Below are positions 21,506 to 33,457 of a stretch of DNA of 33,457 bases, piece by piece. The stretch comes from Promethearchaeota archaeon. Its GTDB lineage: Archaea > Asgardarchaeota > Lokiarchaeia > Sigyniarchaeales > SOKP01. Within the stretch, counting starts at the first letter, position 1. Every line of letters starts with the position of its first letter. The stretch is from the NCBI GenBank assembly GCA_011364975.1, contig RDOE01000036.1, positions 1-33,457 of the forward strand, given 5' to 3'. A program made the translations under genes and the position numbers. Below the pieces are notes generated by a model. That model had not been told where the DNA came from, searched no databases, and saw only the letters and a program-made list of their open reading frames with translations.

Positions 21506-22486
21506 TTATGATTTTTCTAGGAGTTTTTGCAGAATTAATGGCATAGAATAGAGATCCCAATAATTATGGTCAATTACTTCTTTAATCAACCCAATATATC
21601 TTTCAGGTTCCTCAAGGTATTTTTCATAACAAAATCCTACTAAATTACTGGGTAATTCATTATCTCTTTTTAAACTTATTAGGCTTTGTTCCATATCTGT
21701 TAATGTGTATCTGTTATACAGTCCTTTAAACTTCCTTCGACAATTATGATATAAATCAATATGATGAAAACGTGAATTCGATCTTTTATATGGTATTTCT
21801 TCCGCAGAGATCATAGGATTTTCATCAAAGAAATATAAGAGCCGATTAGCGATGTAGGGTATATCAAAACTCTTGCCATTATATGTTATAAAGCATTTAA
21901 ACTGAGGAAGTATTGTTGACTTGAAATGTTCACAAATAGCAATTTCTTCTTCCAGATTTCGAGCAAATAAAATATGAATTTCAAACTTATCATTATTATA
22001 ATAACCTAAACCTAATATAACAATCGGACTATCGTATAAACCTAAAGTTTCAATATCTATAAAGAGTAATTCTTCTAAATTGAAGCAAAAGGCTACATCT
22101 AAATCGTAAATATAACGATTTTTACATAAAACATCATATTGCCTGTTCTTTATCAATCTTAAAAGTTCTAAAGCAGAATTTTTATATTTTAAATTCATTT
22201 TTAAATCATAAAGGGACTTAATCCCTTTTTTATTTAGTTGACGCTCAGTATGTTTTCCAATAAAGTAAACGGTTTTTAAATTATAAAGTAAAGTTAATTT
22301 TGAGAGATGCAGATCCAATGTGGAGGGAAATTGAGTTTCTTCCCATATGAGTTCCATAAATTCTCCCATTTTATTCTTAATAATTTTATGATCTGGAAAG
22401 AGTTCCTTAAGGGTTTTGCGCTCATATAATGAGATTATTTGAGTTATATCAAAGCTTTCGAAATTATAATAATAGTCCATTGTCAT
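21506..22486 (-). CDS. YprB/RNase H-like DEDD exonuclease with N-terminal helix-hairpin-helix
   Basis: FIDIETLGL, TYNGKSFDIPYI, HIDLY, HNYWDL; HhH-like VYFIGKHTERQLNKKGI. Confidence 0.8.
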   Translation of the reverse strand: MTMDYYYNFESFDITQIISLYERKTLKELFPDHKIIKNKMGEFMELIWEETQFPSTLDLHLSKLTLLYNLKTVYFIGKHTERQLNKKGIKSLYDLKMNLKYKNSALELLRLIKNRQYDVLCKNRYIYDLDVAFCFNLEELLFIDIETLGLYDSPIVILGLGYYNNDKFEIHILFARNLEEEIAICEHFKSTILPQFKCFITYNGKSFDIPYIANRLLYFFDENPMISAEEIPYKRSNSRFHHIDLYHNCRRKFKGLYNRYTLTDMEQSLISLKRDNELPSNLVGFCYEKYLEEPERYIGLIKEVIDHNYWDLYSMPLILQKLLEKS

Positions 22487-22637: not shown

Positions 22638-23900
22638 TTAGTTTTTTGAATTAGAGAACTTAAATACAACTTTGACAGCCTGAGATTCAGATTTATTAGC
22701 TAATGTATTGAATGCATCCTTGTAAGCATTAAGTGGAAACTTATGAGTGATTAGCATCTGAGGATCTATTAATCCTTCTGATAAAAAATTTAAATAATAC
22801 TGAAATGCATGTAAACATTTATCACGGAAAATCTCCACTCCAAATGCATTTGAACCAATAACCTCAAGTTCTTTAAAATAATGAAGCGTATTTTCAAACC
22901 TTTTTGGAGTGCTTACACCAAAAAACACTAATTTACCTTGAGTGCAAAGTATTCTCTCTCCTATTTCAAAAGTTTCTGCTGAAGCGATAGTATCAACTAT
23001 ACCATTCACACCATCTAATGTCCATTTAAGACCCTTTTTAGGAGTATATAAGTCAACATTGTTGTATGCAGCTATTTCTTCAATTAACAAATTACCTGAG
23101 CTTAGAAAAACGTGATCGGCCCCTAATTTAACAGCTAAATCTTTCTGAAATTGATATCTTCCAATCCCTATTATATGCTTTACCCCAAAAATGTTCTTTA
23201 AACAAAGAATTGTTAGCAAACCTATAATACCTAAACCATAAACAAGAATTTGAGAATTAGGGCTTGGATTCAACAATAGTAGAGAATGAAAAGAAACAGA
23301 AAAAGGATCTGCTAACACTGCTTGTTCAAAAGATACTTTTTCAGGTATCAAAAAACATTGCGATTTATGAACTGATATATATGGACTAAAACCCCCATAT
23401 CCGCGTGTAACACCTAAATGCATTCCTGTTGGAATTTTTCCCTTCTGAAAATTTTGACAATGTTTAAAATCACCTAAAGAACATCTTGAACATATTGGTG
23501 AGATTCCTCGAGGAATACATGAAAACCACGGATTAATTACTACACGATCGCCCTTTTTAAACTCTTTTACATTAAGTCCAACGCTTTCTATAATTCCAAC
23601 AGGTTCATGTCCCATTATCTGAGGAAAAGAAATAAAAGAACGTATAGGATTATCCAGCGTCCCTTTAAGTTGTAGTTCAGTCATATCACTGCCACAAATC
23701 CCACAAAAAGTGGTTTTAACAATAACCCAATCTTCTGAGATTAACTTTGGATACGGAACATTTTTTAGAGTTACCGGTCCTCCAGATTTCCAAAATCCTT
23801 TTGGACTTATTTTTCCTTTAATAAATGCTTTCAATAATTTGAAGCTTTTTAATTCGAATATTAATGCAGGGATGCATCCCTTCTCATTTTTTGGTTTCAT
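22638..23900 (-). CDS. Zn-dependent medium-chain dehydrogenase/reductase (paralog 2)
   Basis: CGICGSD, GHE, structural-Zn cysteines C..PICSRC..C, Rossmann VYGLGIIG, ITHKFPL, KVV. Confidence 0.9.
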   Translation of the reverse strand: MKPKNEKGCIPALIFELKSFKLLKAFIKGKISPKGFWKSGGPVTLKNVPYPKLISEDWVIVKTTFCGICGSDMTELQLKGTLDNPIRSFISFPQIMGHEPVGIIESVGLNVKEFKKGDRVVINPWFSCIPRGISPICSRCSLGDFKHCQNFQKGKIPTGMHLGVTRGYGGFSPYISVHKSQCFLIPEKVSFEQAVLADPFSVSFHSLLLLNPSPNSQILVYGLGIIGLLTILCLKNIFGVKHIIGIGRYQFQKDLAVKLGADHVFLSSGNLLIEEIAAYNNVDLYTPKKGLKWTLDGVNGIVDTIASAETFEIGERILCTQGKLVFFGVSTPKRFENTLHYFKELEVIGSNAFGVEIFRDKCLHAFQYYLNFLSEGLIDPQMLITHKFPLNAYKDAFNTLANKSESQAVKVVFKFSNSKN

Positions 23901-23919
23901 ATGAATTTTTGCTCATAGA

Positions 23920-25179
23920 TTAATCAAAATAAAAATTAACTTTAATAGATTTAAATTTCTCTTGATTTCTTGCAACCACAAACGCTTTTTTATAGTCTCT
24001 TAAGAGAAATTTATGTGAAATTATTGGTGTTGGATTAATTCTCCCCTCTTCTAATAATCGAAAGTAATGATAATATGCATGATCTCGAGTGCCTTCAAAA
24101 TTTTCTATTGCAAAGGCATTACTACCAATAATATTTATCTCTTTAAAATACCATGGTGTCCATTCAAATTTCTTAGGAACATGGACTCCTGTTAAGACAA
24201 TTATTCCGGATTTCTCCTTATTATTCTTAAAATCTACTAATCTTGATTTTACTATACGTAAACCTGTTTCTAATGTTTCTGCAGATGCAACAGTATCAAA
24301 CAAAAAATCAATTCCTTCTAATAACCAAGGGTGCTTTTTTTTTAAATAATATATATCACAATTCAAATAATCTCCAACACGTTCGATGACTCTGCTTGCA
24401 GGAGATGATTTGATTACTAAATCTGCACCAAATTTCTTTGCCATTTCTATTTGATGGGGAAATCTAGCAATAGCAATTACTGTTATATCTTTATAAATAC
24501 TCTTTAAAAAGTGAATTGTTAGTAACCCAAGGTTTCCACACCCATAAACCCCACAAATCGATCCTTCCCAAAGATCAACTTTGAGTATAGAATGAAGCAC
24601 CACAGAAAAAGGATCTGATAGAACAGCTTGCTCCAATGAAACTGAATCAGGTATTTTTATTGCCATGGTTTTATGTGCTGGGAAAAATTCTGCAAATCCC
24701 CCTGTAGCATCACTACTATTACCTGTATGAATTCCAGAGCTGAGAATGCCTTTTGTAAAGTTTCTGCAAAGATATTTATTTCCTTCAACACACGGACTAC
24801 AAATAGGTTCAATTTCTCGTGGTTCGCAACTAATCCATGGATTTAAAGCAATTCTATCACCTGGTTTTAAATTTGAGGATTTTCCGGCTTCATCGACAAT
24901 CCCAACAGCTTCATGTCCTAAAATTTGGGGCCATGAAATTAAGGCAGTTATGGGATTATCAAAATTTCCATCAAGAAAGATTTGTTTCTGATCGGAACCA
25001 CATATCCCACAATATTTCGTCTTCACAATTACCCAGTTGTTAGTTTTAAGCTTTGGAAAAGGAACTTCTTTCAATTGTACTGCTCCAAGTTTAGAAAGAT
25101 AACCTTTAAGATATAATGTTCCCAATATTCGAGATAATGCTAATCTGTAAAGTTTGTAATCAAAAACGAGTGCTTTCAT
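23920..25179 (-). CDS. Zn-dependent medium-chain dehydrogenase/reductase (paralog 1)
   Basis: CGICGSD, GHE, C..PICSPC..C, VYGCGNLG, ISHKF, IKV. Confidence 0.9.
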   Translation of the reverse strand: MKALVFDYKLYRLALSRILGTLYLKGYLSKLGAVQLKEVPFPKLKTNNWVIVKTKYCGICGSDQKQIFLDGNFDNPITALISWPQILGHEAVGIVDEAGKSSNLKPGDRIALNPWISCEPREIEPICSPCVEGNKYLCRNFTKGILSSGIHTGNSSDATGGFAEFFPAHKTMAIKIPDSVSLEQAVLSDPFSVVLHSILKVDLWEGSICGVYGCGNLGLLTIHFLKSIYKDITVIAIARFPHQIEMAKKFGADLVIKSSPASRVIERVGDYLNCDIYYLKKKHPWLLEGIDFLFDTVASAETLETGLRIVKSRLVDFKNNKEKSGIIVLTGVHVPKKFEWTPWYFKEINIIGSNAFAIENFEGTRDHAYYHYFRLLEEGRINPTPIISHKFLLRDYKKAFVVARNQEKFKSIKVNFYFD

Positions 25180-25311
25180 AATCAGTATTTATTTGGGGTG
25201 GTATATGCAATTAGATTTTTAATAATTAATGATGTCTAGTTATTAATAAATTTGTTTCCCTTAAAAATGAAAGAGTTAATTATATAGGTATCTTTTATAA
25301 TAATCTAATAA

Positions 25312-26646
25312 TTAGTAATCAATTTTTGTAATGTAATCTTCATATTTACTTTTTGGAGGCTTATATTTAAAGAATCGACGCGATTCACTATCTTCTAAAA
25401 CGTAATTACTCCCCCCGCCATGAAGCATGCAATAGGAGTCAAGAAGTCCGATTTCATTAGCATATTGTCTAGTAAATCCACGTCCACCAAGGGTTCTAAA
25501 GCAATGAATTGAACTTTCAAATCCTAACTCGGTTGCACTAATCTTTAAACCCATTGCATTTGCTGCCATTAATTTAGATCCTCCCAATTCAGGTCTGTTA
25601 TCCATTTCTCTTGCATATTGAATTAATGCAGAGAGCATTAAATTTAATTCTCGAATCTTCTGTGATATTGGAAACCGAATTACTTGATACTGATGCAATC
25701 TTTTCTCGAATTGTCTACGTTGAAGAGCATAAGCATGTGAATATAATAATTTTTTCATAGCATCCCCAAGTGCTTCAGCGCTAATGACTAACCGTTCTTC
25801 GGTAAGTTGATGAAAAGCAATATCTAAACCATGCCCATGCAGCATATTTTCCTTTGGAATTTCAACTTTATCAAAAATTAATCGACTTACAAATGCATCA
25901 GTCATACCATAAGTCATCACTCGAGTACTACGGAAATTCTTTAATTGTTGATGCTCTGTATCCACTACAATAGCTCCTAATTGTCCATTATCAAGTCTGC
26001 CGTAGAGCACTATATAATCAGCAATCATCCCATTTGTAATGAACAATTTTTTTCCTTTAGCAACTATATTTTCATTTTGATCATGCAATCGCATTTCCAT
26101 TCGAAAAATGTCAGATCCTGCATTGAATTCGGTCATAGCTGAAGCTCCAATTTGGCCATCCTCTGCAACTGGGTTTAGGAATCTTTTCTTTTGAGAATCA
26201 TCAGAAGCATAATTAACAGGATTACAATATAAGGTTCCCCCAGCTAATCTTCCCATCTCTATGCTATAATTTCCGGCAATATATTTTTCACTATATTCAC
26301 TCCATCTTCCTCCACACAATGCATAAGCAATAAGTGCATTTCTCGTAATTCTACCAATTTCATAGTCTTCCGTATTTAGAATGGTTGAATAATAACCACT
26401 TTGCGCTAATTTTTTCATAATCTCTACTACTATTTCCTTTTTCTTATCCTGGGTCGGTTCTTCTACAAGGTAATTTAACTCTTCTAATTTTTTCAATTCA
26501 GGATCCAGTTCTTTTTCCATAAACTCGTATAATTCAGCAAGAAAATCTTTTTCCTTAGCATTAAGTATAGGATTCGTTAATAAATCCAATTCTGTTACAT
26601 ATCGTATAATTTGAATTGGATTAAATTCTGATATTCGTGTGTCCAT
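25312..26646 (-). CDS. Acyl-CoA dehydrogenase family protein
   Basis: AMTEFNAGSD, GKKLFITNG, FDKVEIP, EERL, RRQFEK, LGGRGF, GGGSN. Confidence 0.88.
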   Translation of the reverse strand: MDTRISEFNPIQIIRYVTELDLLTNPILNAKEKDFLAELYEFMEKELDPELKKLEELNYLVEEPTQDKKKEIVVEIMKKLAQSGYYSTILNTEDYEIGRITRNALIAYALCGGRWSEYSEKYIAGNYSIEMGRLAGGTLYCNPVNYASDDSQKKRFLNPVAEDGQIGASAMTEFNAGSDIFRMEMRLHDQNENIVAKGKKLFITNGMIADYIVLYGRLDNGQLGAIVVDTEHQQLKNFRSTRVMTYGMTDAFVSRLIFDKVEIPKENMLHGHGLDIAFHQLTEERLVISAEALGDAMKKLLYSHAYALQRRQFEKRLHQYQVIRFPISQKIRELNLMLSALIQYAREMDNRPELGGSKLMAANAMGLKISATELGFESSIHCFRTLGGRGFTRQYANEIGLLDSYCMLHGGGSNYVLEDSESRRFFKYKPPKSKYEDYITKIDY

Positions 26647-26756
26647 AATATATCACTACTTACAAGAAATTTTAAAATTTACTTCTTTTTGAAAATAGGA
26701 AAATAATCCCATTACGATTTTTTAAATCAATTAGTAATCTTTTAATCATAATCATA

Positions 26757-26780
26757 ATAGACTTTAAGTATAAAGTCTAT
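26757..26780. promoter_or_regulatory. Perfect 10-bp inverted repeat (operator candidate) overlapping TATA-like boxes in the divergent ACAD/thiolase promoter
   Basis: ATAGACTTTA-AGTA-TAAAGTCTAT; contains TTTAAGTA (+) and TTTATACT (-). Confidence 0.65.
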
Positions 26781-26836
26781 AACAAAAATGGATTTATTTT
26801 AAAAAAGTCATTAAAATTTGATTAAGGGAAAATGAA

Positions 26837-28258
26837 ATGATAAAATTTAGCGATAAACAATTAAAGATACCTAAATTAATGCGTCCAGTTTATTTAGCCA
26901 CAGTTGGGATGTCAAAATTTGATCGTGCATTCCCAGAAACGCGAACGGAGGAGCTTTGCATAGATGCATTTACTGCTGCTGCTGATTTTGTTAAAATGAC
27001 ACCTGCTGAGTTGAAATCATATATACACACTTGTTATTATGGTCATTTTGCCGATCATTTCGGAGATCAATTACTTGGAGAAGCAGTAATTCATGATAGG
27101 CTCGGTTTGGACCCATTAGGAAACATAGGAGTAAAAACAGGGGGTGCTACAGGAGGTTCTGCTATGTGGGAAGCCGTCAAGGCAGTGGCTTCAGGTTATA
27201 GTGATTGTACTTTAGCTTTAGGATGGGAGAGAATGGATGAAGTGCCAACAGATGAGGGAAATCATCTTATCTCTTGTGCTGCTGATAAGGATTGGGAGAC
27301 TCCTTTAGGGCATATTTACACTGGTTATTATGCGGTTATGGCGCAAAGATATTGGAAAATTTTTGGAAAAGAAGAAGAATCATTTAGACGTACAATGGCA
27401 GAAATTGCTGTTAAAAATCGCGGTTATGCAAGAATGAATCCTCATGCACAGGGACCCTTAAAGATCACAGTAGAGGATGTTCTTAACTCGCCAATTGTTG
27501 CTTATCCACTTCGAGCTTTGGATTGTTGTTTGATGAGTGTAGGTTCTTCATGTGGTATTGTGTGTGATGAGAAGACCGCATATGAAATTACTGATAAACC
27601 ACTAAGAATTTACATTGCTGCAGGAAGTCATACCTTAAGAGTAGCTGATCGCCGTGATATGAAGATCCCACTCTTACCTAACGAATCGAAAGGTCAATAC
27701 GATGATTTGGGAAAAAGATTTCCTGGTGGCGATCGATATCCTGGATTTAGTAGTTTTTTAGCTGCGAGAATGTCAGCTTATTATGCTTACAATATGTCTG
27801 GTGTTGTTGATCCAAGTGAAGATCTTGATCTTGTTGAGCTTCATGATGCATTTACGATAAGTGATATCCAAACTTATGAGGATATTGGAATTAGACCTTA
27901 TGGAGAAGGTAGAAATTATATTGAAAGTGGCGATGCATATATCATAAACCCAAACACTAAAAAACCGGGAAAGTTACCAAGTAATCCAAGCGGTGGATTG
28001 ATTGGTTGTATGCATGCTGTAGGGGCAACCGGTCTTATGCAGATCGCAGAAATTGGATATCATATTTGGAATCGTTGGGATGAAATTCATGAACCTGAAG
28101 CAAAATGGAAAGCATTCAATCGAGAAAAACCAAAGGATTGGACTAGTTTACAAGTAAAAGGAGCAAAGAGAGGGTTAGCTATTAGTCATGCGGGTGTAGG
28201 GTCTCATGTAACATGTACAATCTTAATGGATCCAAATAAATTAATAAAGGAGGAGTGA
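26837..28258 (+). CDS. Thiolase-superfamily (SCP-x/archaeal type) protein lacking the N-terminal catalytic Cys
   Basis: VGMSKF, VKTGGATGG at the usual ACASG site, GWERM, IAVKNRGYARMNPHAQ, LDCC, VELHDAF, NPSGGL..HAVGATG. Confidence 0.88.
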   Translation: MIKFSDKQLKIPKLMRPVYLATVGMSKFDRAFPETRTEELCIDAFTAAADFVKMTPAELKSYIHTCYYGHFADHFGDQLLGEAVIHDRLGLDPLGNIGVKTGGATGGSAMWEAVKAVASGYSDCTLALGWERMDEVPTDEGNHLISCAADKDWETPLGHIYTGYYAVMAQRYWKIFGKEEESFRRTMAEIAVKNRGYARMNPHAQGPLKITVEDVLNSPIVAYPLRALDCCLMSVGSSCGIVCDEKTAYEITDKPLRIYIAAGSHTLRVADRRDMKIPLLPNESKGQYDDLGKRFPGGDRYPGFSSFLAARMSAYYAYNMSGVVDPSEDLDLVELHDAFTISDIQTYEDIGIRPYGEGRNYIESGDAYIINPNTKKPGKLPSNPSGGLIGCMHAVGATGLMQIAEIGYHIWNRWDEIHEPEAKWKAFNREKPKDWTSLQVKGAKRGLAISHAGVGSHVTCTILMDPNKLIKEE

Positions 28259-28262
28259 AGAA

Positions 28263-28862
28263 ATGCCAAAAACAGAAAATGAAAAAGGTATTGTTGAGAT
28301 TGTTGATGGAAAATATAAACCGAGTGGAACATTTCATATCATAGAAAAAAATCAACCAATATTTGATAAAGATGCTAATAAATTAGCAGGAGTCACCAAT
28401 CCAAGAGATATGACATATATTCACTCATATGGCGGAGAAGCTATGTTTTTTGAATCTTTAGGTAAAGGAAAACTCATTGCTACTAGATGTGATAATGATA
28501 ATTGCGAATTTAAAGGTTCTATATACATGCCTTTTAGAATATATTGTCCAGATTGTTTAAGAAAAATGACACCATTAAATTTAACGGAAATAGCAAGAAA
28601 AACCGCAAAGGTACATTCTTATATCATCACTCATCGATCTGGAGCATTTAACACACTTGATCTACCTATAAAGTTTATAAATGTTGAATTCGATAATGTC
28701 GTAACAATTTTGATGAGTTATCTTGTTGTAGGTGAACCTGAGATTGGAAAACGAGTTGTACCTATTTTTAGAACAAAAAACCCAACCTATACAATAACAG
28801 ATCTTGCATTTGTTCCTGAAGGAACATTAAAATCCGAATTACCCGAAGGTTTTACATTCTAA
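28263..28862 (+). CDS. DUF35-family Zn-ribbon/OB-fold protein
   Basis: FFESLGKGKLIATRCDNDNC..PFRIYCPDC, VHSY, INVEFD, IGKRVVPIF; 4 nt after the thiolase stop, with SD AGGAGG. Confidence 0.85.
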   Translation: MPKTENEKGIVEIVDGKYKPSGTFHIIEKNQPIFDKDANKLAGVTNPRDMTYIHSYGGEAMFFESLGKGKLIATRCDNDNCEFKGSIYMPFRIYCPDCLRKMTPLNLTEIARKTAKVHSYIITHRSGAFNTLDLPIKFINVEFDNVVTILMSYLVVGEPEIGKRVVPIFRTKNPTYTITDLAFVPEGTLKSELPEGFTF

Positions 28863-28867
28863 TTAAC

Positions 28868-28876
28868 TTTTTTTTT
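28868..28876 (+). terminator. Oligo-T archaeal terminator after the thiolase-DUF35 operon
   Basis: T9 run beginning 6 nt after the stop codon, in a convergent intergenic region. Confidence 0.5.
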
Positions 28877-29090
28877 GTTATTTACATTGATTAATCTTAT
28901 CTTAGAATTGAGATGAGGTGTCTCTTAAGTATTTCACTTTTTATACTGGAAAGAATTATTTTTTGAGAGGAAAAACATATTATTTTCCACATTTTAATTC
29001 GATTGCATTATTTATTTAGCATGAATTCATACATTAAAGAAAAAAAAGATGAAAAGAAGATGTTTTAGTTTTTATTGACTGTTTCAGTTC

Positions 29091-29993
29091 TTATAAATCT
29101 ACATGTTCTTTCTTTAAATGAAAAATCTTTCTAGCTTCGTCACCTTGAGCAATTTTGCGTCCTGCTGCTTCAGCTACCTTTCTTGCCCAAGCTACTTGCT
29201 CATAACTTCCTTTAGCCAGTTCACCTGTTACAACACGAGTATTATCTTCTAAACCAACTCTTATATGACCACCTAACGCTGCAGCACAAAGTCCCGCTTG
29301 AAATTGTTGTTTAGAAACACCACATACGCTCCAAGTAGAATCTGGAGGTATAAGATCCAATAACAGTGAGAGATTTTTAGGGGAGAAGGGAATTCCACCG
29401 AGAACGCCCCAAACAAATTGGAAGTGAAGTGGTTGAGTAAATGAATCTTCTGATCTATTAAGAAATAGCATATTATACAATCCTCCCAAATCATAGATTT
29501 CCATTTCTGGTTTCGTTCCTACTTTCTTCATTTCTTTTGCAAATTTCGAAATTGTTTTAAAGGTATTCGCAAAGATATTATCCGCTCCCATACCAACTTT
29601 TCCCGTCCTATAATCACCTACTGCGAAATTCATCGATGCAGTATTTAGGGAGGCTAATGGTGGCTTAAAAGTTTGAACTGGTGCAATTCTTTGCTTATCC
29701 GTGGCGACTGAACTAATAGCAGTGCTTAAATTTATTATTATGTCAGGAGCTTTTGATTTGATGTTTTCCAGTACTGCTTTTATTAAATCTAACTCATGAG
29801 TTGGATTACCTTTTTCAGGATCTCGAGCATGAATATGGACTATTGCAGCACCAGCATCATAACATTTTTTCGCTTCATCGCCAAATTCTTCTGCGGTGTA
29901 AGGAACGCTTGGATTATTAGCCTTAGTTGTAATAGCACCAGCTAAAGCTGCTGATATTACTAATTTATTTTCTGGATTTGATTCTTCCGACAT
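29091..29993 (-). CDS. Beta-keto acid cleavage enzyme (BKACE/DUF849, 3-keto-5-aminohexanoate cleavage family)
   Basis: ALAGA, NPSVPYTAEE, AGAAIVHIHAR (HxH), STA, SMNF, KPEMEIYD, GGHIRVGLED; ATG 29993 follows AGTGATAAAA (the track starts at GTG 30002). Confidence 0.9.
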   Translation of the reverse strand: MSEESNPENKLVISAALAGAITTKANNPSVPYTAEEFGDEAKKCYDAGAAIVHIHARDPEKGNPTHELDLIKAVLENIKSKAPDIIINLSTAISSVATDKQRIAPVQTFKPPLASLNTASMNFAVGDYRTGKVGMGADNIFANTFKTISKFAKEMKKVGTKPEMEIYDLGGLYNMLFLNRSEDSFTQPLHFQFVWGVLGGIPFSPKNLSLLLDLIPPDSTWSVCGVSKQQFQAGLCAAALGGHIRVGLEDNTRVVTGELAKGSYEQVAWARKVAEAAGRKIAQGDEARKIFHLKKEHVDL

Positions 29994-30032
29994 TTTTATC
30001 ACTTTTTGGGTTATTTTACCTCTTTTTCAATT

Positions 30033-30065
30033 AGATTTGATCTTTATTAAATAAAGATTAAATTT
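30033..30065. promoter_or_regulatory. Inverted repeat in the divergent BKACE/thiolase promoter
   Basis: ATCTTTATT-A-AATAAAGAT perfect at 30040-30058; extends to 30033-30065 with two G/T mismatches. Confidence 0.5.
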
Positions 30066-30214
30066 CTTTGTATTTAAAGTTTAAAACGGGAAAAAAGTGA
30101 TTTTTACAATTATTTACTTTTTTGGTGATAATTTAAGAATAAAAGATTTTTATAGATTGAATAAAATATAATATTAATTTTCATATTTAAAGAACATAAA
30201 TAGAGAATCCAAAA

Positions 30215-31357
30215 ATGGATAAAATAGCTATAGTTGGTTGTGCTCAAACTAAATATGAAGCTGAAAAAATCGATTTAACAATCTCAGAACTCGTTTTTCA
30301 AGTTGTTAAACAACTTTATATGAATTTGGGTATAACTAATGATGATGTTGGATGTGTAATAACCAGCTCGAATGATTTTAATGATGGAAGAACTATCGCA
30401 AACATGGCGATACAAGATGCTGTAGGGTCTGTTCGAAAGTCTGAATCCAGAGTCTCTGGAGATGGGGCATTTGCTTTTATTTATGGAGCAATGAGAATTC
30501 TTTCTGAGTCATATGATACCGTTTTGGTTGTATCTCACTGTAAATGTTCTGAAGCAAACCAATATCTCGTTAATAATTCGATTTTTGATCCATATTATCA
30601 AAGACATCTAGGTTTAGATCAATTATCAGCATCAGGATTAATGGCAAATGTATATATGAATAAATACGGAATTAATGAAGAACAAGCAGCTAGAGTAGTG
30701 GTAAAAAACAGGACTAATGCTCTAAATAACCCATATGCTCATTTACAAGAACAAGTTTCTGTTAAAGATGTTCTTGACTCTAAAATGATGGCATTTCCTC
30801 TTAAAGAGTTGGACCTTCCTCCCTTTTCGGATGGGGCTGTTGCTATGTTATTAGCGAAAGAAAAAATCGCGAAAAAGATGACACACAATCCTGTATGGCT
30901 TAAAGGGTATGGAAGTTGTACCGATGCATATTATTTAGGACACCGAACCATGACAGATTTGATTGCATTAGAATTAGCAGCTAAAAAGGCATATCAAATG
31001 GCAGAGATTAGAAAACCTAAAGAAGAACTTGATTTTTGCGAAGTAAGTGAAAATTTCAGTTTCCATGAATTAATGATTTACGAAGCTTTAGGTTTGTGTA
31101 AAAAAGGAGAGGGAGGGAAATTTATTGAATCTGGAGAAACTCAGATGAGTGGAAGTATTCCAGTCAATCCTTCTGGGGGTGTCTTATCAAGCAATCCATC
31201 GATGGCTAATGGTTTAATTCGGGTAGCAGAGTGTACATTACAATTAATGGATAAAGCGGGCAAACGACAGGTACCCGATGCAAAAACTGGTTTAGCATAT
31301 GGCATGAATGGATTATGTTCACAAGGAAATTGTGTTATTATTTTAGGAGGTGAATAA
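30215..31357 (+). CDS. Thiolase-superfamily protein, Ltp4-like (no catalytic Cys)
   Basis: AIVGCAQT, SNDFNDG, SESRVSGDGAFA (cf. Ltp4-type ESHVEMDxAWA, from memory), NPYAHL, SDGAVA, VNPSGG.LSSNP. Confidence 0.8.
   Translation: MDKIAIVGCAQTKYEAEKIDLTISELVFQVVKQLYMNLGITNDDVGCVITSSNDFNDGRTIANMAIQDAVGSVRKSESRVSGDGAFAFIYGAMRILSESYDTVLVVSHCKCSEANQYLVNNSIFDPYYQRHLGLDQLSASGLMANVYMNKYGINEEQAARVVVKNRTNALNNPYAHLQEQVSVKDVLDSKMMAFPLKELDLPPFSDGAVAMLLAKEKIAKKMTHNPVWLKGYGSCTDAYYLGHRTMTDLIALELAAKKAYQMAEIRKPKEELDFCEVSENFSFHELMIYEALGLCKKGEGGKFIESGETQMSGSIPVNPSGGVLSSNPSMANGLIRVAECTLQLMDKAGKRQVPDAKTGLAYGMNGLCSQGNCVIILGGE
31345..31353 (+). promoter_or_regulatory. Strong Shine-Dalgarno site
   Basis: AGGAGGTGA 7 nt before ATG 31361, inside the last codons of the upstream gene. 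Confidence 0.7.
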
Positions 31358-31360
31358 AAA

Positions 31361-32527
31361 ATGCCTAAGCATGATGTTGCTGTTGTTGGAATAGGTCAAA
31401 TGAAATATAGAAGTAAAAGGATCGATGTAAATATTCCTGAAATGATTTATGAAGCTGTAAAAAATGCACTTGATAATGCCAAATTAGGACCAGAAGATAT
31501 TGATGCCGTCCTAATTGGAAATATGGACCATTTTGAAGGCATTAATTTTTCTGAGTTGTGGTGTGGAATTGATGCTGCACCAGGTTATTTGAAGCCTGTT
31601 GTAAAAATAGCAACGGGAGGAACAACAGGATCCTCATTAGCTATAAGTGGTTATCATAATGTTGCGTCTGGTATTTATGATAAAGTTTTAGTTGTAGGTT
31701 GGGAGAAATTGAATGAAGGAGGTGCCACTACAGGAATTATAACCGCGTTTGATCCCGTTTGGGAAAGACCATCATTAGCGGGAGCGTTAGGACCGTTGGC
31801 TTTAATGGCAAGCATGTATTCAGCAAAATATGGAATTACTTCAGAACAAGCAGCAAAAGTAACCGTTAAAAACCGAAGTAACGCTGCTAATAATCCATAT
31901 GCCCATCTACAGATGCCAGGTATAACGATTGATTATGTAATGAACTCACAAGTCATTTCATATCCCCTTAGATTGCATGATTGTTGTCCTCAAAGTGAAG
32001 GAGCCTGTGCTTTAATATATGCAAATGAAAATGAAGCGAAAAAGATAACAGACAATCCCGCATGGTTTCAGGCAGTCGAGACCGCACATTATTACACTTT
32101 TGGAACTGATGACGTGATGTTTGACCTTCCAACAGCTAAGATAGCTTCAACAAAAGCATATAAAAAAGCAAACATAAGAAATCCATTAAAGGATTTAGAT
32201 GTTGCTGAAATTTATGAACCTACTTCTTGGAGTGAATTATCTTGGACAGAAGCTTTAGGATTTGCCGAACCTGGAAAGGGAGGTAACTTGTTAGACGAAG
32301 GAATAACCCAAATGAGCGGTGAACTCCCCGTTAACCCTTCTGGGGGAGTTCTTAGTACAAATCCAATAGGAGCTACTGCTTTAATAAGAGTTGCAGAAGC
32401 AGCAACTCAGATTATGGGTCAGGGTGGAAAACGACAAGTTCCTGATGTTGAAAAAGCTCTAGCAATGGGATTTGGAGGTAGCTTATGGACCGAAATAATG
32501 ATCTTAGGAAATGAACCTATGAGGTGA
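31361..32527 (+). CDS. Thiolase-superfamily protein, Ltp3-like (no N-terminal catalytic Cys)
   Basis: VAVVGIGQ, DHFEG, KPVVKIATGGTTGSS, GWEK, NPYAHL, DCCPQSEGACA, AEIYEP, VNPSGGVLSTNPIGATALIR. Confidence 0.82.
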   Translation: MPKHDVAVVGIGQMKYRSKRIDVNIPEMIYEAVKNALDNAKLGPEDIDAVLIGNMDHFEGINFSELWCGIDAAPGYLKPVVKIATGGTTGSSLAISGYHNVASGIYDKVLVVGWEKLNEGGATTGIITAFDPVWERPSLAGALGPLALMASMYSAKYGITSEQAAKVTVKNRSNAANNPYAHLQMPGITIDYVMNSQVISYPLRLHDCCPQSEGACALIYANENEAKKITDNPAWFQAVETAHYYTFGTDDVMFDLPTAKIASTKAYKKANIRNPLKDLDVAEIYEPTSWSELSWTEALGFAEPGKGGNLLDEGITQMSGELPVNPSGGVLSTNPIGATALIRVAEAATQIMGQGGKRQVPDVEKALAMGFGGSLWTEIMILGNEPMR

Positions 32528-32532
32528 TAAAA

Positions 32533-33024
32533 ATGAGTAAAAAAAAAGGAAAAAAAGATTATTTTGAAATTAAATGGAAAACAGATTTGAAGTACCGCTA
32601 TTCTATTGGTAAGCTCGCTGTTAAATTTTTTGAGGAACTCAAGAAAAATAAAAAAATACTAGGAAGTAAATGCCCAAAATGTAATAAAGTACATTTTCCT
32701 CCAAGGGCTGTTTGTGCAGAATGTTTAGTTGAGATGACAATTGATGATATGGTTGAATTACCTCCAAAAGGTACTTTAGCGGGCTTTACAGTAATAAATT
32801 ATCCCTTTACTGATCCTTCAACAGGAGGAATTCGCCCATTTCCATACGGTTATGCATTATTTAAACTAGATGGTGCTGATACTTATACTATGCATTTTAT
32901 TAATGAAACAGATATTAGTAAGATGAAGATAGGGCAGCGAGTTGAGGCTGTGTTTAGTGAGAAACTAAAAGGGGATTTTACAGCAGATATTCCTTATTTT
33001 CGAATTATTAAAAAAGAGGGATAA
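32533..33024 (+). CDS. DUF35-family Zn-ribbon/OB-fold protein
   Basis: KFFEELK..ILGSKCPKC..PPRAVCAEC, GTLAGFTV, LFKLDGAD, IGQRVEAVF; ATG 32533 with SD GAGGTGA at 32521-32527. Confidence 0.9.
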   Translation: MSKKKGKKDYFEIKWKTDLKYRYSIGKLAVKFFEELKKNKKILGSKCPKCNKVHFPPRAVCAECLVEMTIDDMVELPPKGTLAGFTVINYPFTDPSTGGIRPFPYGYALFKLDGADTYTMHFINETDISKMKIGQRVEAVFSEKLKGDFTADIPYFRIIKKEG

Positions 33025-33040
33025 GAGAGGTGTATAAAAA

Positions 33041-33457
33041 TTGACAGAAGAATTAGAGAAAAAAGTATATCGGGGAAGAATTAAGGTTACGTATAAACAT
33101 ACTGGTGGAGCCTATGTTGAAAAATTTATAACTGCTATTGGCAAAGAACAAAAAATTATGGGGATTAAATGCCCTAAATGCCTAAAAGTTCAAGTACCAC
33201 CCAAAATGATTTGTTTCAAGTGCTTTGAGAAAATGGATGAATGGGTTGAATTAGGAAATGAGGGAACGCTTAAGGGATTCACAGTAGTCACTCATTCTAC
33301 ATCTGTAATGCCATTAGAACCACCCTTTGCATATGGTTTAATTAAGCTTGATGGTGCAGATACCGATTTCGTACATGTTATTAAAGAAAGTGATCCTAAG
33401 AACCTTCAAATTGGAATGAGAGTAAAGGCCGTTTTCAATGAAAAACCACGTAAAAGA
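33041..33457 (+). CDS. DUF35-family Zn-ribbon/OB-fold protein, 3'-truncated by the window edge (absent from the ORF track)
   Basis: Hand translation from TTG 33041 (SD GAGGTG at 33027-33032): MTEELEKKVYRGRIKVTYKHTGG..IMGIKCPKC..PPKMICFKC..GTLKGFTVV..LIKLDGADT..IGMRVKAVFNEKPRKR; no stop before the end. Confidence 0.88.
   Translation, partial: MTEELEKKVYRGRIKVTYKHTGGAYVEKFITAIGKEQKIMGIKCPKCLKVQVPPKMICFKCFEKMDEWVELGNEGTLKGFTVVTHSTSVMPLEPPFAYGLIKLDGADTDFVHVIKESDPKNLQIGMRVKAVFNEKPRKR

Follow-up and report, generated by a model that had tools for sequence, protein, structure and literature searches.

The stretch of DNA analysed here, called the window, is the whole of contig C135 (33,457 nucleotides) of an Asgard archaeal genome (G000). 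The closest relatives of its proteins carry the names Promethearchaeota, Promethearchaeia or Hodarchaeota. The feature under study spans positions 22638-33457 and is centered on a plus-strand run of four genes. THL_B (30215..31357) encodes a 380-aa thiolase fold with no nucleophilic Cys and a shortened nucleophile loop, THL_C (31361..32527) a 388-aa Cys-less thiolase fold, and DUF35a (32524..33024) a 166-aa zinc-ribbon/OB-fold protein (Pfam zf-ChsH2, OB_ChsH2_C). DUF35b (33041..33457) encodes a second zinc-ribbon/OB-fold protein, recognized by Pfam and cut by the contig end. These genes very probably belong to a conserved, non-thiolytic thiolase-fold/DUF35 complex that is embedded in acyl-CoA metabolism.

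A second plus-strand unit lies upstream and consists of THL_A (26837..28258), a 473-aa Cys-less SCP2-type thiolase fold (Pfam, alignments), and its partner DUF35w (28263..28862), a divergent 199-aa DUF35 protein with zinc ribbon and OB fold. Spacing within both plus-strand units is tight, with gaps or overlaps of 3-16 nt, and the start of DUF35a overlaps the end of THL_C by 4 nt. Both units have divergent partners on the minus strand. The THL_B-THL_C-DUF35a-DUF35b unit faces away from a gene for a 303-aa BKACE family enzyme (29091..30002), and THL_A-DUF35w from the set ACAD-MDR2-MDR1. Here ACAD is a 444-aa acyl-CoA dehydrogenase (25312..26646; Pfam Acyl-CoA_dh_M, Acyl-CoA_dh_1), and MDR2 (419 aa, 23920..25179; Pfam) and MDR1 (420 aa, 22638..23900; Pfam ADH_N, ADH_zinc_N) are Zn-dependent medium-chain dehydrogenases. 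Open reading frames (ORFs) and Pfam recovered all ten genes and both divergent arrangements listed in an earlier note on this DNA. That note had also seen no HMG-CoA synthase (HMGS) in the window, and Pfam found none among the window ORFs.

All three thiolase folds match Pfam Thiolase_N and Thiolase_C_1, as in the SCP2-thiolase fold. Their nucleophile loops were placed by HMMER alignment to the solved archaeal thiolases 6ESQ and 7YVY. The motifs on which the earlier note rested, TGGATG in THL_A, VSGDGA in THL_B and TGGTTG in THL_C, are present in the translations, align to this loop, and contain no Cys. The nucleophile is replaced by Gly in THL_A and THL_C and by Val/Ser in THL_B, whose loop is also 3 residues shorter. 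Losses extend to the remaining catalytic loops. THL_A reads TGGATGG / HDAF / MHAVGATG (GCMHAVGATG with its preceding residues), keeping both His and losing the acid/base Cys of the HDCF loop. THL_B reads SG-DGA (VSG-DGA) / SENF / SSNP, THL_C reads TGGTTG / YEPT / STNP (T-N334-P-IGAT), and each has lost the HDCF Cys and both thiolase His. A competent SCP2-type thiolase has a nucleophilic Cys, the HDCF Cys and the GHP His, and none of the window folds carries this set. The alignments support the view that all three are incapable of normal Cys-nucleophile thiolysis, which would rule out thiolysis by the THL_B/THL_C complex. With the HDCF Cys and the His lost as well, what is missing in THL_B and THL_C is the whole thiolase apparatus, not one residue.

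Thiolases that keep the Cys are encoded elsewhere in the genome. Among its seven full-length paralogs, only the protein on contig C146, which has a DUF35 partner, keeps ACASSG, HDCF and GHPVGATG in the alignment. Contig C81 carries a second Cys-bearing thiolase (YCASG), and C89 holds a fragment of a classical thiolase (NEAF/GHP/CxG). Cys-less forms account for six of the eight SCP2-type thiolase-fold genes and for four of the six thiolase/DUF35 sets, among them a cassette on contig C24 and another THL_A-type pair on C54, and no thiolase fold on C135 or C54 has the Cys. The claim that only non-canonical C-C cleavage enzymes are present is thus right for the window but not for the genome. On C81 (L059, 2849-4813), a 480-aa HMGS with a C-terminal DUF35 OB domain precedes the YCASG thiolase, which is cut by the contig end; the two are probably the mevalonate-pathway set. 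The C24 cassette (L058, 2739-6165) is a second, diverged DUF35-THL_B2-THL_C2-DUF35 array (VEM-DGA in the former; TGGTTGG and YAPF in the latter), flanked by a tagaturonate-epimerase-like gene and an alpha-amylase gene.

THL_C is the probable catalytic subunit of the module, judging from its signature. All 39 C-type sequences from Asgard and bacterial loci have Gly at the nucleophile position, Tyr in place of the HDCF His and Asn in place of the GHP His, and in 37 of them Pro replaces the HDCF Cys. Across 109 homologs with 54-100% identity, 136 of the 388 positions are at least 97% invariant, and these include TGGTTG, Y285, E286, P287, N334, C209 and H182. In the HMMER alignment Y285 falls on the HDCF His of 6ESQ. 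A paper on the Sal aldolases (PMC12329534) gives Y294DHF in TcLtp2 and Y302DCY in CtSal where thiolases have HDCF, describes both Tyr as essential, and places Gly at the former nucleophile position of Sal. These data support a location of Y285 at the position of the Ltp2/Sal catalytic base, an equivalence that is transitive, through the 6ESQ HDCF motif, without direct alignment. The suggestion that the Cys-less folds act as retro-aldolases therefore holds in part. THL_C has the invariant Tyr, but THL_A has His and THL_B has Ser at this position, and by score THL_C lies outside the Ltp2 and Sal clades.

THL_B is probably a non-catalytic or auxiliary subunit with a variable former active site. 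It varies at the former catalytic positions, and among 39 sequences the HDCF-His position is occupied by Tyr in 20, Ser in 8 and other residues in 11. We considered THL_B as a decayed subunit and dropped the idea, as it is nearly as conserved as its neighbor: over the same 26 gene pairs, 81 of 380 positions are invariant in THL_B and 101 of 388 in THL_C.

Structure prediction supports a THL_B-THL_C heterodimer. The pair scored 0.95, against 0.00 for the best of three controls; this score is reached by 116 of 157 solved complexes and by 2 of 215 mismatched pairs. Contact agreement between runs was at least 95% and partner pLDDT at least 93. The predicted interface is the one canonical for thiolase dimers, and the high score may therefore mirror likeness to solved dimers of that kind. 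DUF35a and DUF35b both have zinc ribbon and OB fold and four invariant Cys each. The two are fused into one protein of 319-332 aa in one Asgard genus (L042 8056-9051, L045 8058-9014, L048 8039-9034), which argues that both act together on THL_B/THL_C. The longer DUF35a-containing proteins found, three in number and 317-332 aa long, are all tandem DUF35 proteins, which is weak evidence on partners, and none of the ORFs in 80 loci joins a DUF35 to BKACE or to any other reference family.

The arrangement of the four genes is conserved in Asgard archaea. Of 151 genomes of the phylum, 20 have a THL_C copy with at least 75% identity, counting this genome and two partial copies. THL_B is directly upstream and DUF35a directly downstream of THL_C in 13 of 13 orthologous loci, and DUF35b is next in 12 of them, fused to DUF35a in three. 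For neighbor counts we took the 32 archaeal loci that span at least 10 kb and looked up to 9 kb from THL_C. DUF35a is present in all 32, followed by BKACE (25), an FNR-like reductase (24), a crotonase-type hydratase (ECH; 21-22), a CrtI-like flavoprotein (21), acyl-CoA ligase (20), ACAD (19), THL_A (17), Fe-ADH (14) and SCP2 (13). A FadA-type thiolase was found in none of the 32. In the Asgard family f19 (G028, G047, G064, G070 and G088, with Jordarchaeia/Freyarchaeota names) there are 8-12 THL_C-like matches per genome, by sequence a large expansion of Cys-less pairs.

The module was first taken for an archaeal route. That limit falls, as the four genes also occur together in many bacterial groups, anaerobes among them. 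A pattern search with one genome per species returned at least 602 stretches, and among the matches listed 568 encode relatives. Hosts besides Asgard archaea, among the matches listed, are Thermodesulfobacteriota, Syntrophaceae, Desulfatibacillum, Desulfomonile, Chloroflexota, Acidobacteria, Spirochaetota and Planctomycetota. Among 26 bacterial loci that span at least 10 kb, all have THL_B, 25 have DUF35a and 24 have DUF35b, and the usual gene order is DUF35b-THL_B-THL_C-DUF35a. Their neighbors are acyl-CoA ligase (11 of 26), ACAD (8), MaoC hydratase (8), FadA-type thiolase (7), BKACE (5) and 3-hydroxyacyl-CoA dehydrogenase (3). The FadA-type neighbors indicate that in bacteria the module accompanies true thiolases and is not a substitute for them. 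That true thiolases and dehydrogenases lie next to it speaks for a special step beyond the reach of ordinary beta-oxidation, for example at a branch point. In 7 of the 26 bacterial loci, DUF35a is followed by a protein of 268-297 aa (271 aa in the neighbor count) that neither Pfam nor NCBIfam recognizes (L120 10681-11493, L117 10635-11525, L124 10682-11485); no homolog of it was found in the archaeal loci.

The same neighborhood bears on a reading in which the Cys-less proteins are pseudo-enzymes, that is, non-catalytic scaffolds or regulators that organize the real enzymes (Cys-bearing thiolases, hydratases, BKACE). A FadA-type thiolase sits directly beside the module in 7 of 26 bacterial loci, THL_B is variable at all former catalytic positions, and DUF35 complexes are known to scaffold a second or third enzyme such as HMGS or reductases, as stated in bioRxiv 10.1101/2024.07.05.601840 and PMC12329534. 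We nevertheless regard a pure scaffold as rather unlikely. THL_C (136/388) and THL_A (221/473) are too conserved in pocket-type polar residues, both THL_B and THL_C are constrained when compared over the same 26 pairs, and the Asgard island contains no Cys-bearing thiolase to be organized: FadA-type thiolases are absent from the 32 loci, and the folds on C135 and C54 are all Cys-less.

A quick tree of 34 rows, with SH-aLRT support only, separates the folds into types. The A-type clade joins THL_A, its paralog THL_A2 and the Cys-bearing C146 thiolase (SH-aLRT 99). THL_C falls in the C-type clade with its counterparts from bacteria and with large subunits encoded by plasmid loci of Streptomyces and Rhodococcus (SH-aLRT 94). 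The B-type group is resolved in part only.

The locus continues beyond the window. Frame 0 of contig C54 starts with IKYFEPVN*, which matches the C-terminus of the DUF35b ortholog in G071. We read C54 as the direct continuation of the window, because its first codons supply the last residues of DUF35b. Positions 25312-33457 are then best explained as the opening section of an acyl-CoA island, about 23 kb long, that is conserved in Asgard archaea. On C54 (L056, 1-15137), the end of DUF35b is followed by an ECH, Fe-ADH, SCP2, an FNR/PaaE-like reductase, a CrtI-family flavoprotein, a second ECH and a long-chain acyl-CoA ligase. Beyond a group of ABC-transporter genes come a DUF35 protein with the second Cys-less THL_A-type protein, a third ECH, and a FabK/NMO-like reductase. 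Genomes of the same genus have an ECH directly after DUF35b and an AMP-forming ligase inside the cluster. The hydratase and CoA ligase that were to be sought downstream thus both exist, on C54 here and downstream of or inside the cluster in close relatives. The best NCBIfam match of the ECH after DUF35b is EchA19, at 162 bits, far below the cut-off of 400. No RNA sequencing run carrying window positions 29091-33457 was found.

The CrtI/phytoene-desaturase-family flavoprotein (about 517 aa) and the FNR/PaaE-like 2Fe-2S reductase (about 395 aa) form a recurring pair (L056 2989-5733, L040 13255-15996), which might act as a desaturase or saturase on an unsaturated or isoprenoid chain.

The BKACE gene is a frequent neighbor of THL_C. 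Its product matches Pfam PF05853 over the full profile (positions 1-274 of 274; 302.6 bits, cut-off 24.8). It stays below all four NCBIfam equivalog cut-offs, models that include Kce, 3,5-dioxohexanoate and 3-oxoadipate types; it reached 265 bits against 382 for Kce, and for others 238 against 430 and 181 against 350. BKACE paralogs number only 4 across the 3.74 Mb of this genome, so the linkage to THL_C is far above chance. Archaeal loci share ancestry, and for this reason the five bacterial cases, which come from different phyla, are the more independent evidence. ACAD likewise reached no NCBIfam equivalog.

Conservation of the whole cluster, as first delineated, is uneven: BKACE (25/32) and ACAD (19/32) are retained, but the two Zn-dehydrogenases are not. 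MDR1 is near THL_C in 0 of 32 archaeal and 0 of 26 bacterial loci, MDR2 in 0 of 32 and 2 of 26, and neither occurs in a further set of 16 loci examined. The MDR pair is an unrelated inserted cassette, even though it lies downstream of ACAD on the same strand here. All NCBIfam matches of the two proteins are far below cut-off, the best being polyol/threonine dehydrogenase types. The MDR2-MDR1 tandem is found in some related genomes only, and in unrelated contexts (G049, G154, G065; loci L232, L233, L234). In G049 it adjoins a split TPP enzyme and a family-III CoA-transferase, and in G154 unrelated genes. A role for the MDRs as enoyl-CoA reductases was considered and rejected, with 55-60 bits to acryloyl-CoA reductase (cut-off 500), an E-value of 2.7e-4 to crotonyl-CoA carboxylase/reductase, and no synteny.

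Other window genes stand apart from the island. Mtd (methylene-H4MPT dehydrogenase) and Ftr (formylmethanofuran:H4MPT formyltransferase), at 458-2379, belong to the archaeal methyl branch of the Wood-Ljungdahl pathway. A 326-aa RNase H-superfamily/PolB-exonuclease-like ORF (21506-22486) is kept next to ACAD in related genomes, and 12 of 32 archaeal loci have a homolog no more than 9 kb from THL_C; it shows no obvious acyl-CoA link. The remaining genes are unrelated: a class II aminoacyl-tRNA synthetase, GNATs, TPR proteins, a G3P dehydrogenase and a ketohexokinase.

THL_A and DUF35w are, from their sequences and gene contexts, a second and independent Cys-less unit, separate from the THL_B/THL_C operon. 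THL_A reaches 681.7 bits with NCBIfam PRK06365 ('thiolase domain-containing protein'; cut-off 695). In 121 homologs with 76-95% identity, from Archaea and many bacterial phyla, 221 of its 473 positions are at least 98% invariant, among them TGGATGG, HDAF, H393 and C231. Homologs 76-80% identical over 473 residues occur in Planctomycetes, Marinimicrobia, Cytophagales, Krumholzibacteria, Gammaproteobacteria, Desulfobacterales and Thermoplasmata. The Pfam DUF35 match of DUF35w is weak and below cut-off (E 6.5e-4), but hhalign bears out its assignment as the third DUF35 protein of the locus (97% probability, E 1.2e-10, 133 columns including the zinc ribbon). DUF35w directly follows THL_A in 73 of 78 metagenome loci, and ACAD is the divergent upstream neighbor in 42 of the 78. 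Non-Asgard THL_A loci have unrelated neighbors, none of them constant.

What would such a complex do? Retro-aldol cleavage by THL_B/THL_C is, in our estimate, about an even prospect. In this scheme the heterodimer would be capped by the two zinc-ribbon/OB proteins, DUF35a and DUF35b. ACAD and the crotonase hydratases would convert an acyl-CoA to a 3-hydroxyacyl-CoA, which THL_C would split into a shorter acyl-CoA and an aldehyde or ketone. Tyr285 would serve as the base, and the backbone at Gly86/87 would stand in for the lost Cys. Fe-ADH or an aldehyde:ferredoxin oxidoreductase (AOR), together with the acyl-CoA ligase, could return the carbonyl product to the CoA pool, and BKACE could handle a beta-keto-acid intermediate with acetyl-CoA. 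We infer complex formation from a structural model; the aldolase chemistry, its direction, and the parts given to BKACE, AOR and ligase are likewise putative. SCP2, the CrtI-like flavoprotein and the long-chain ligase allow the guess that the substrate is a lipophilic, possibly branched chain.

Several observations weigh against an aldolase of the known kind, or against a pathway built on it. First, THL_C scores 140-161 bits against 6ESQ, 7YVY and 4YZO and only 82 against Ltp2 (6OK1) and 78 against Sal (9MYR). From these scores THL_C is not a member of either clade and would at best be aldolase-like in its working. Second, the second catalytic residues of the aldolases appear to be missing, with Pro where Sal has Cys304 and Ltp2 has His296. 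The Sal motif, YDCY with Tyr302 and Cys304 together with Gly at the nucleophile position, is therefore incomplete: Tyr and Gly are present, and Pro replaces Cys304 in 37 of 39 sequences. Asn334 occupies the GHP-His position. Third, structure comparison did not discriminate. Foldseek against the PDB gave TM-scores of 0.77-0.85 to thiolases, Ltp2, Sal and SLP alike, and the AF2 model of THL_C has TM-scores of 0.84-0.85 to 6HSP, 7YVY and 6ESQ; the model is itself moderate (pLDDT 76.6), with active-site loops 85-88 and 333-336 below 50. Fourth, MaoC hydratase, the partner of Ltp2 and Sal, was found within 9 kb of THL_C in none of the 32 archaeal loci, AOR lies near THL_C in just 7 of them, and synteny counts among these loci are not independent given their shared ancestry. 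Fifth, the Cys-bearing thiolases and 9 3-hydroxyacyl-CoA dehydrogenase homologs elsewhere in the genome mean that a thiolase-free route is not forced on this organism.

A last point is that Cys209 of THL_C is invariant in 109 of 109 homologs. The CP motif around it is kept in relatives from contig C24, Streptomyces and Rhodococcus, and Cys231 of THL_A is invariant in 121 of 121 homologs. These proteins could then be ordinary thiolases with a displaced nucleophile, Cys209 or Cys216 in THL_C and Cys231 in THL_A. We hold this to be highly improbable. The HDCF acid/base Cys is gone in all three folds and both thiolase His are gone in THL_B and THL_C; in thiolase structures the D-C-C-P segment presumably lines the CoA-binding groove, far from the catalytic centre.

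Other non-thiolytic chemistry is an unlikely alternative to retro-aldol cleavage. Candidates are decarboxylation of malonyl-type or beta-keto thioesters, hydrolytic retro-Claisen cleavage, and acyl transfer like that of PhlABC/MucABC. TbSLP, a Cys-less relative with YDCF, slowly decarboxylates malonyl-CoA according to PMC12329534. PhlABC/MucABC, heteromeric complexes of thiolase folds and DUF35, are among the structural and sequence matches. THL_A keeps both oxyanion-hole His (HDAF, MHAVGATG) and has no Tyr, and the recurrent BKACE suggests that beta-keto compounds are present. Against this, the Cys88 used in acyl transfer of the PhlC type is missing here, the Tyr that never varies in THL_C is exactly at the aldolase base position, and the ECH, ACAD and ligase neighbors suit a 3-hydroxyacyl-CoA substrate.

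The reaction could also run in the synthetic direction, with an AOR-made aldehyde and acetyl-CoA joined by THL_B/THL_C, followed by dehydration and reduction, so that elongation avoids thiolase condensation. Aldolase reactions are reversible in principle. In several genomes the island or its surroundings include AOR, Fe-ADH, ECH, a FabK/NMO-like enoyl reductase and OYE-type reductases. Fatty-acid synthesis by ketothiolase (KT)/DUF35 complexes has been proposed for Sulfolobus (bioRxiv 10.1101/2024.07.05.601840). We consider synthesis quite improbable at this locus, since pathways with ACAD and an AMP-forming long-chain ligase are typically catabolic, just 7 of 32 archaeal loci have AOR nearby, and TetR regulators and complete beta-oxidation sets flank bacterial modules.

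It is tempting to go one step further and imagine a thiolase-free two-carbon cycle, in which an aldolase-type complex and AOR replace 3-hydroxyacyl-CoA dehydrogenase and thiolase. We think this very unlikely. If it were true, running forwards it would shorten acyl chains and make low-potential reduced ferredoxin, and running backwards it would lengthen chains from aldehyde and acetyl-CoA without the unfavourable Claisen condensation. It would then be a fatty-acid route so far unrecognised, used by syntrophic anaerobes and by the archaea related to eukaryotes.

The loss of the Cys matters for how genomes are read. Several sources name these proteins 'acetyl-CoA C-acetyltransferase', and reconstructions based on annotation would presumably count Cys-less proteins as the thiolase step of beta-oxidation. 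A preprint (bioRxiv 10.1101/2024.07.05.601840) reports an average of 3.8 'ketothiolase/DUF35 pairs' per Asgard genome and takes them as fatty-acid synthesis capacity. In such counts, Cys-bearing pairs would have to be kept apart from Cys-less ones. Should THL_B/THL_C prove to be a retro-aldolase, an undescribed mode of carbon-chain cleavage would be common to anaerobes ranging from Asgard archaea to sulfate reducers. The module is carried by a cultured strain, Desulfatibacillum alkenivorans DSM 16219 (L117), and by a metagenome-assembled genome of Desulfomonile tiedjei (L123), which provides an experimental entry point.

The literature found offers partial precedents. The only paper found on DUF35 and thiolase-like proteins in anaerobes was the Sal paper (PMC12329534). 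No description of a Cys-less Asgard thiolase/DUF35 module was found, nor, among the matches listed, of a recurrent link between BKACE and such a module. BKACE itself belongs with Kce, the 3-keto-5-aminohexanoate cleavage enzyme, and its relatives, as a full-length family match without an equivalog. The solved archaeal thiolase/HMGS/DUF35 complex is among the closest solved sequence relatives and shares the fold and the DUF35 partnership (bioRxiv 10.1101/2024.07.05.601840). It differs in using the nucleophile Cys and the HDCF Cys, both lost here, and the window has no adjacent HMGS, the HMGS-DUF35 fusion being on C81. ST0096 of Sulfolobus tokodaii (4YZO) is the best solved match of both THL_B (167 bits) and THL_C (161 bits), at about 30% identity. 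It is also Cys-less in the nucleophile loop (TSGSGGS), and no functional study of it was found in the literature, where the one relevant paper recovered does no more than mention it.

The steroid side-chain retro-aldolases Ltp2-ChsH2 (6OK1) and Sal-Shy (9MYR) resemble THL_C in having the SCP2-thiolase fold, Gly instead of the nucleophilic Cys, Tyr for the HDCF His, and a DUF35 partner. Their setting likewise includes genes for ACAD, hydratase and CoA ligase (PMC12329534). THL_C differs in falling into a separate clade and in its motif Y-E-P-T, apparently without the Ltp2 His and Tyr344, and without the Sal Cys304. The module differs in its two unlike thiolase folds, predicted to form a heteromer, and in having free-standing DUF35 proteins rather than fusions with MaoC. 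Hydratases of the Asgard island are crotonases, and the hosts are anaerobes.

The layout of two adjacent, unlike Cys-less thiolase folds with two DUF35 modules is that of the Ltp3/Ltp4 type, and the window genes have it. A plasmid locus of Streptomyces clavuligerus encodes a 340-aa protein with tandem OB folds and two thiolase folds of 355 and 389 aa, the longer of which has YVPF and ANPIGA; an acyl-CoA synthetase gene is nearby. We take its layout to be that of the actinobacterial ltp4-ltp3 locus. In the quick tree the large subunit of this locus falls with THL_C (SH-aLRT 94), and the position of its small subunit was unresolved. The comparison was made through this stand-in for the named Ltp3 and Ltp4, and identity to the Asgard proteins is about 40%. 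Wilbrink et al. (2012), cited in PMC10398937, reportedly linked actinobacterial Ltp3 and Ltp4 to degradation of C24-branched sterol side chains. To our knowledge the evidence on these two proteins is genetic only, and the one paper found on Ltp3, Ltp4 and DUF35 tests ltp3 and ltp4 knock-outs for another step. The Asgard island differs from that setting in its BKACE, SCP2, CrtI-like and FNR-like genes and in lacking genes for steroid ring degradation. Thiolase-fold aldolases with DUF35 partners are thus known; what appears new, from sequence comparison, is a separate and widespread clade with its own signature and a heteromeric build.

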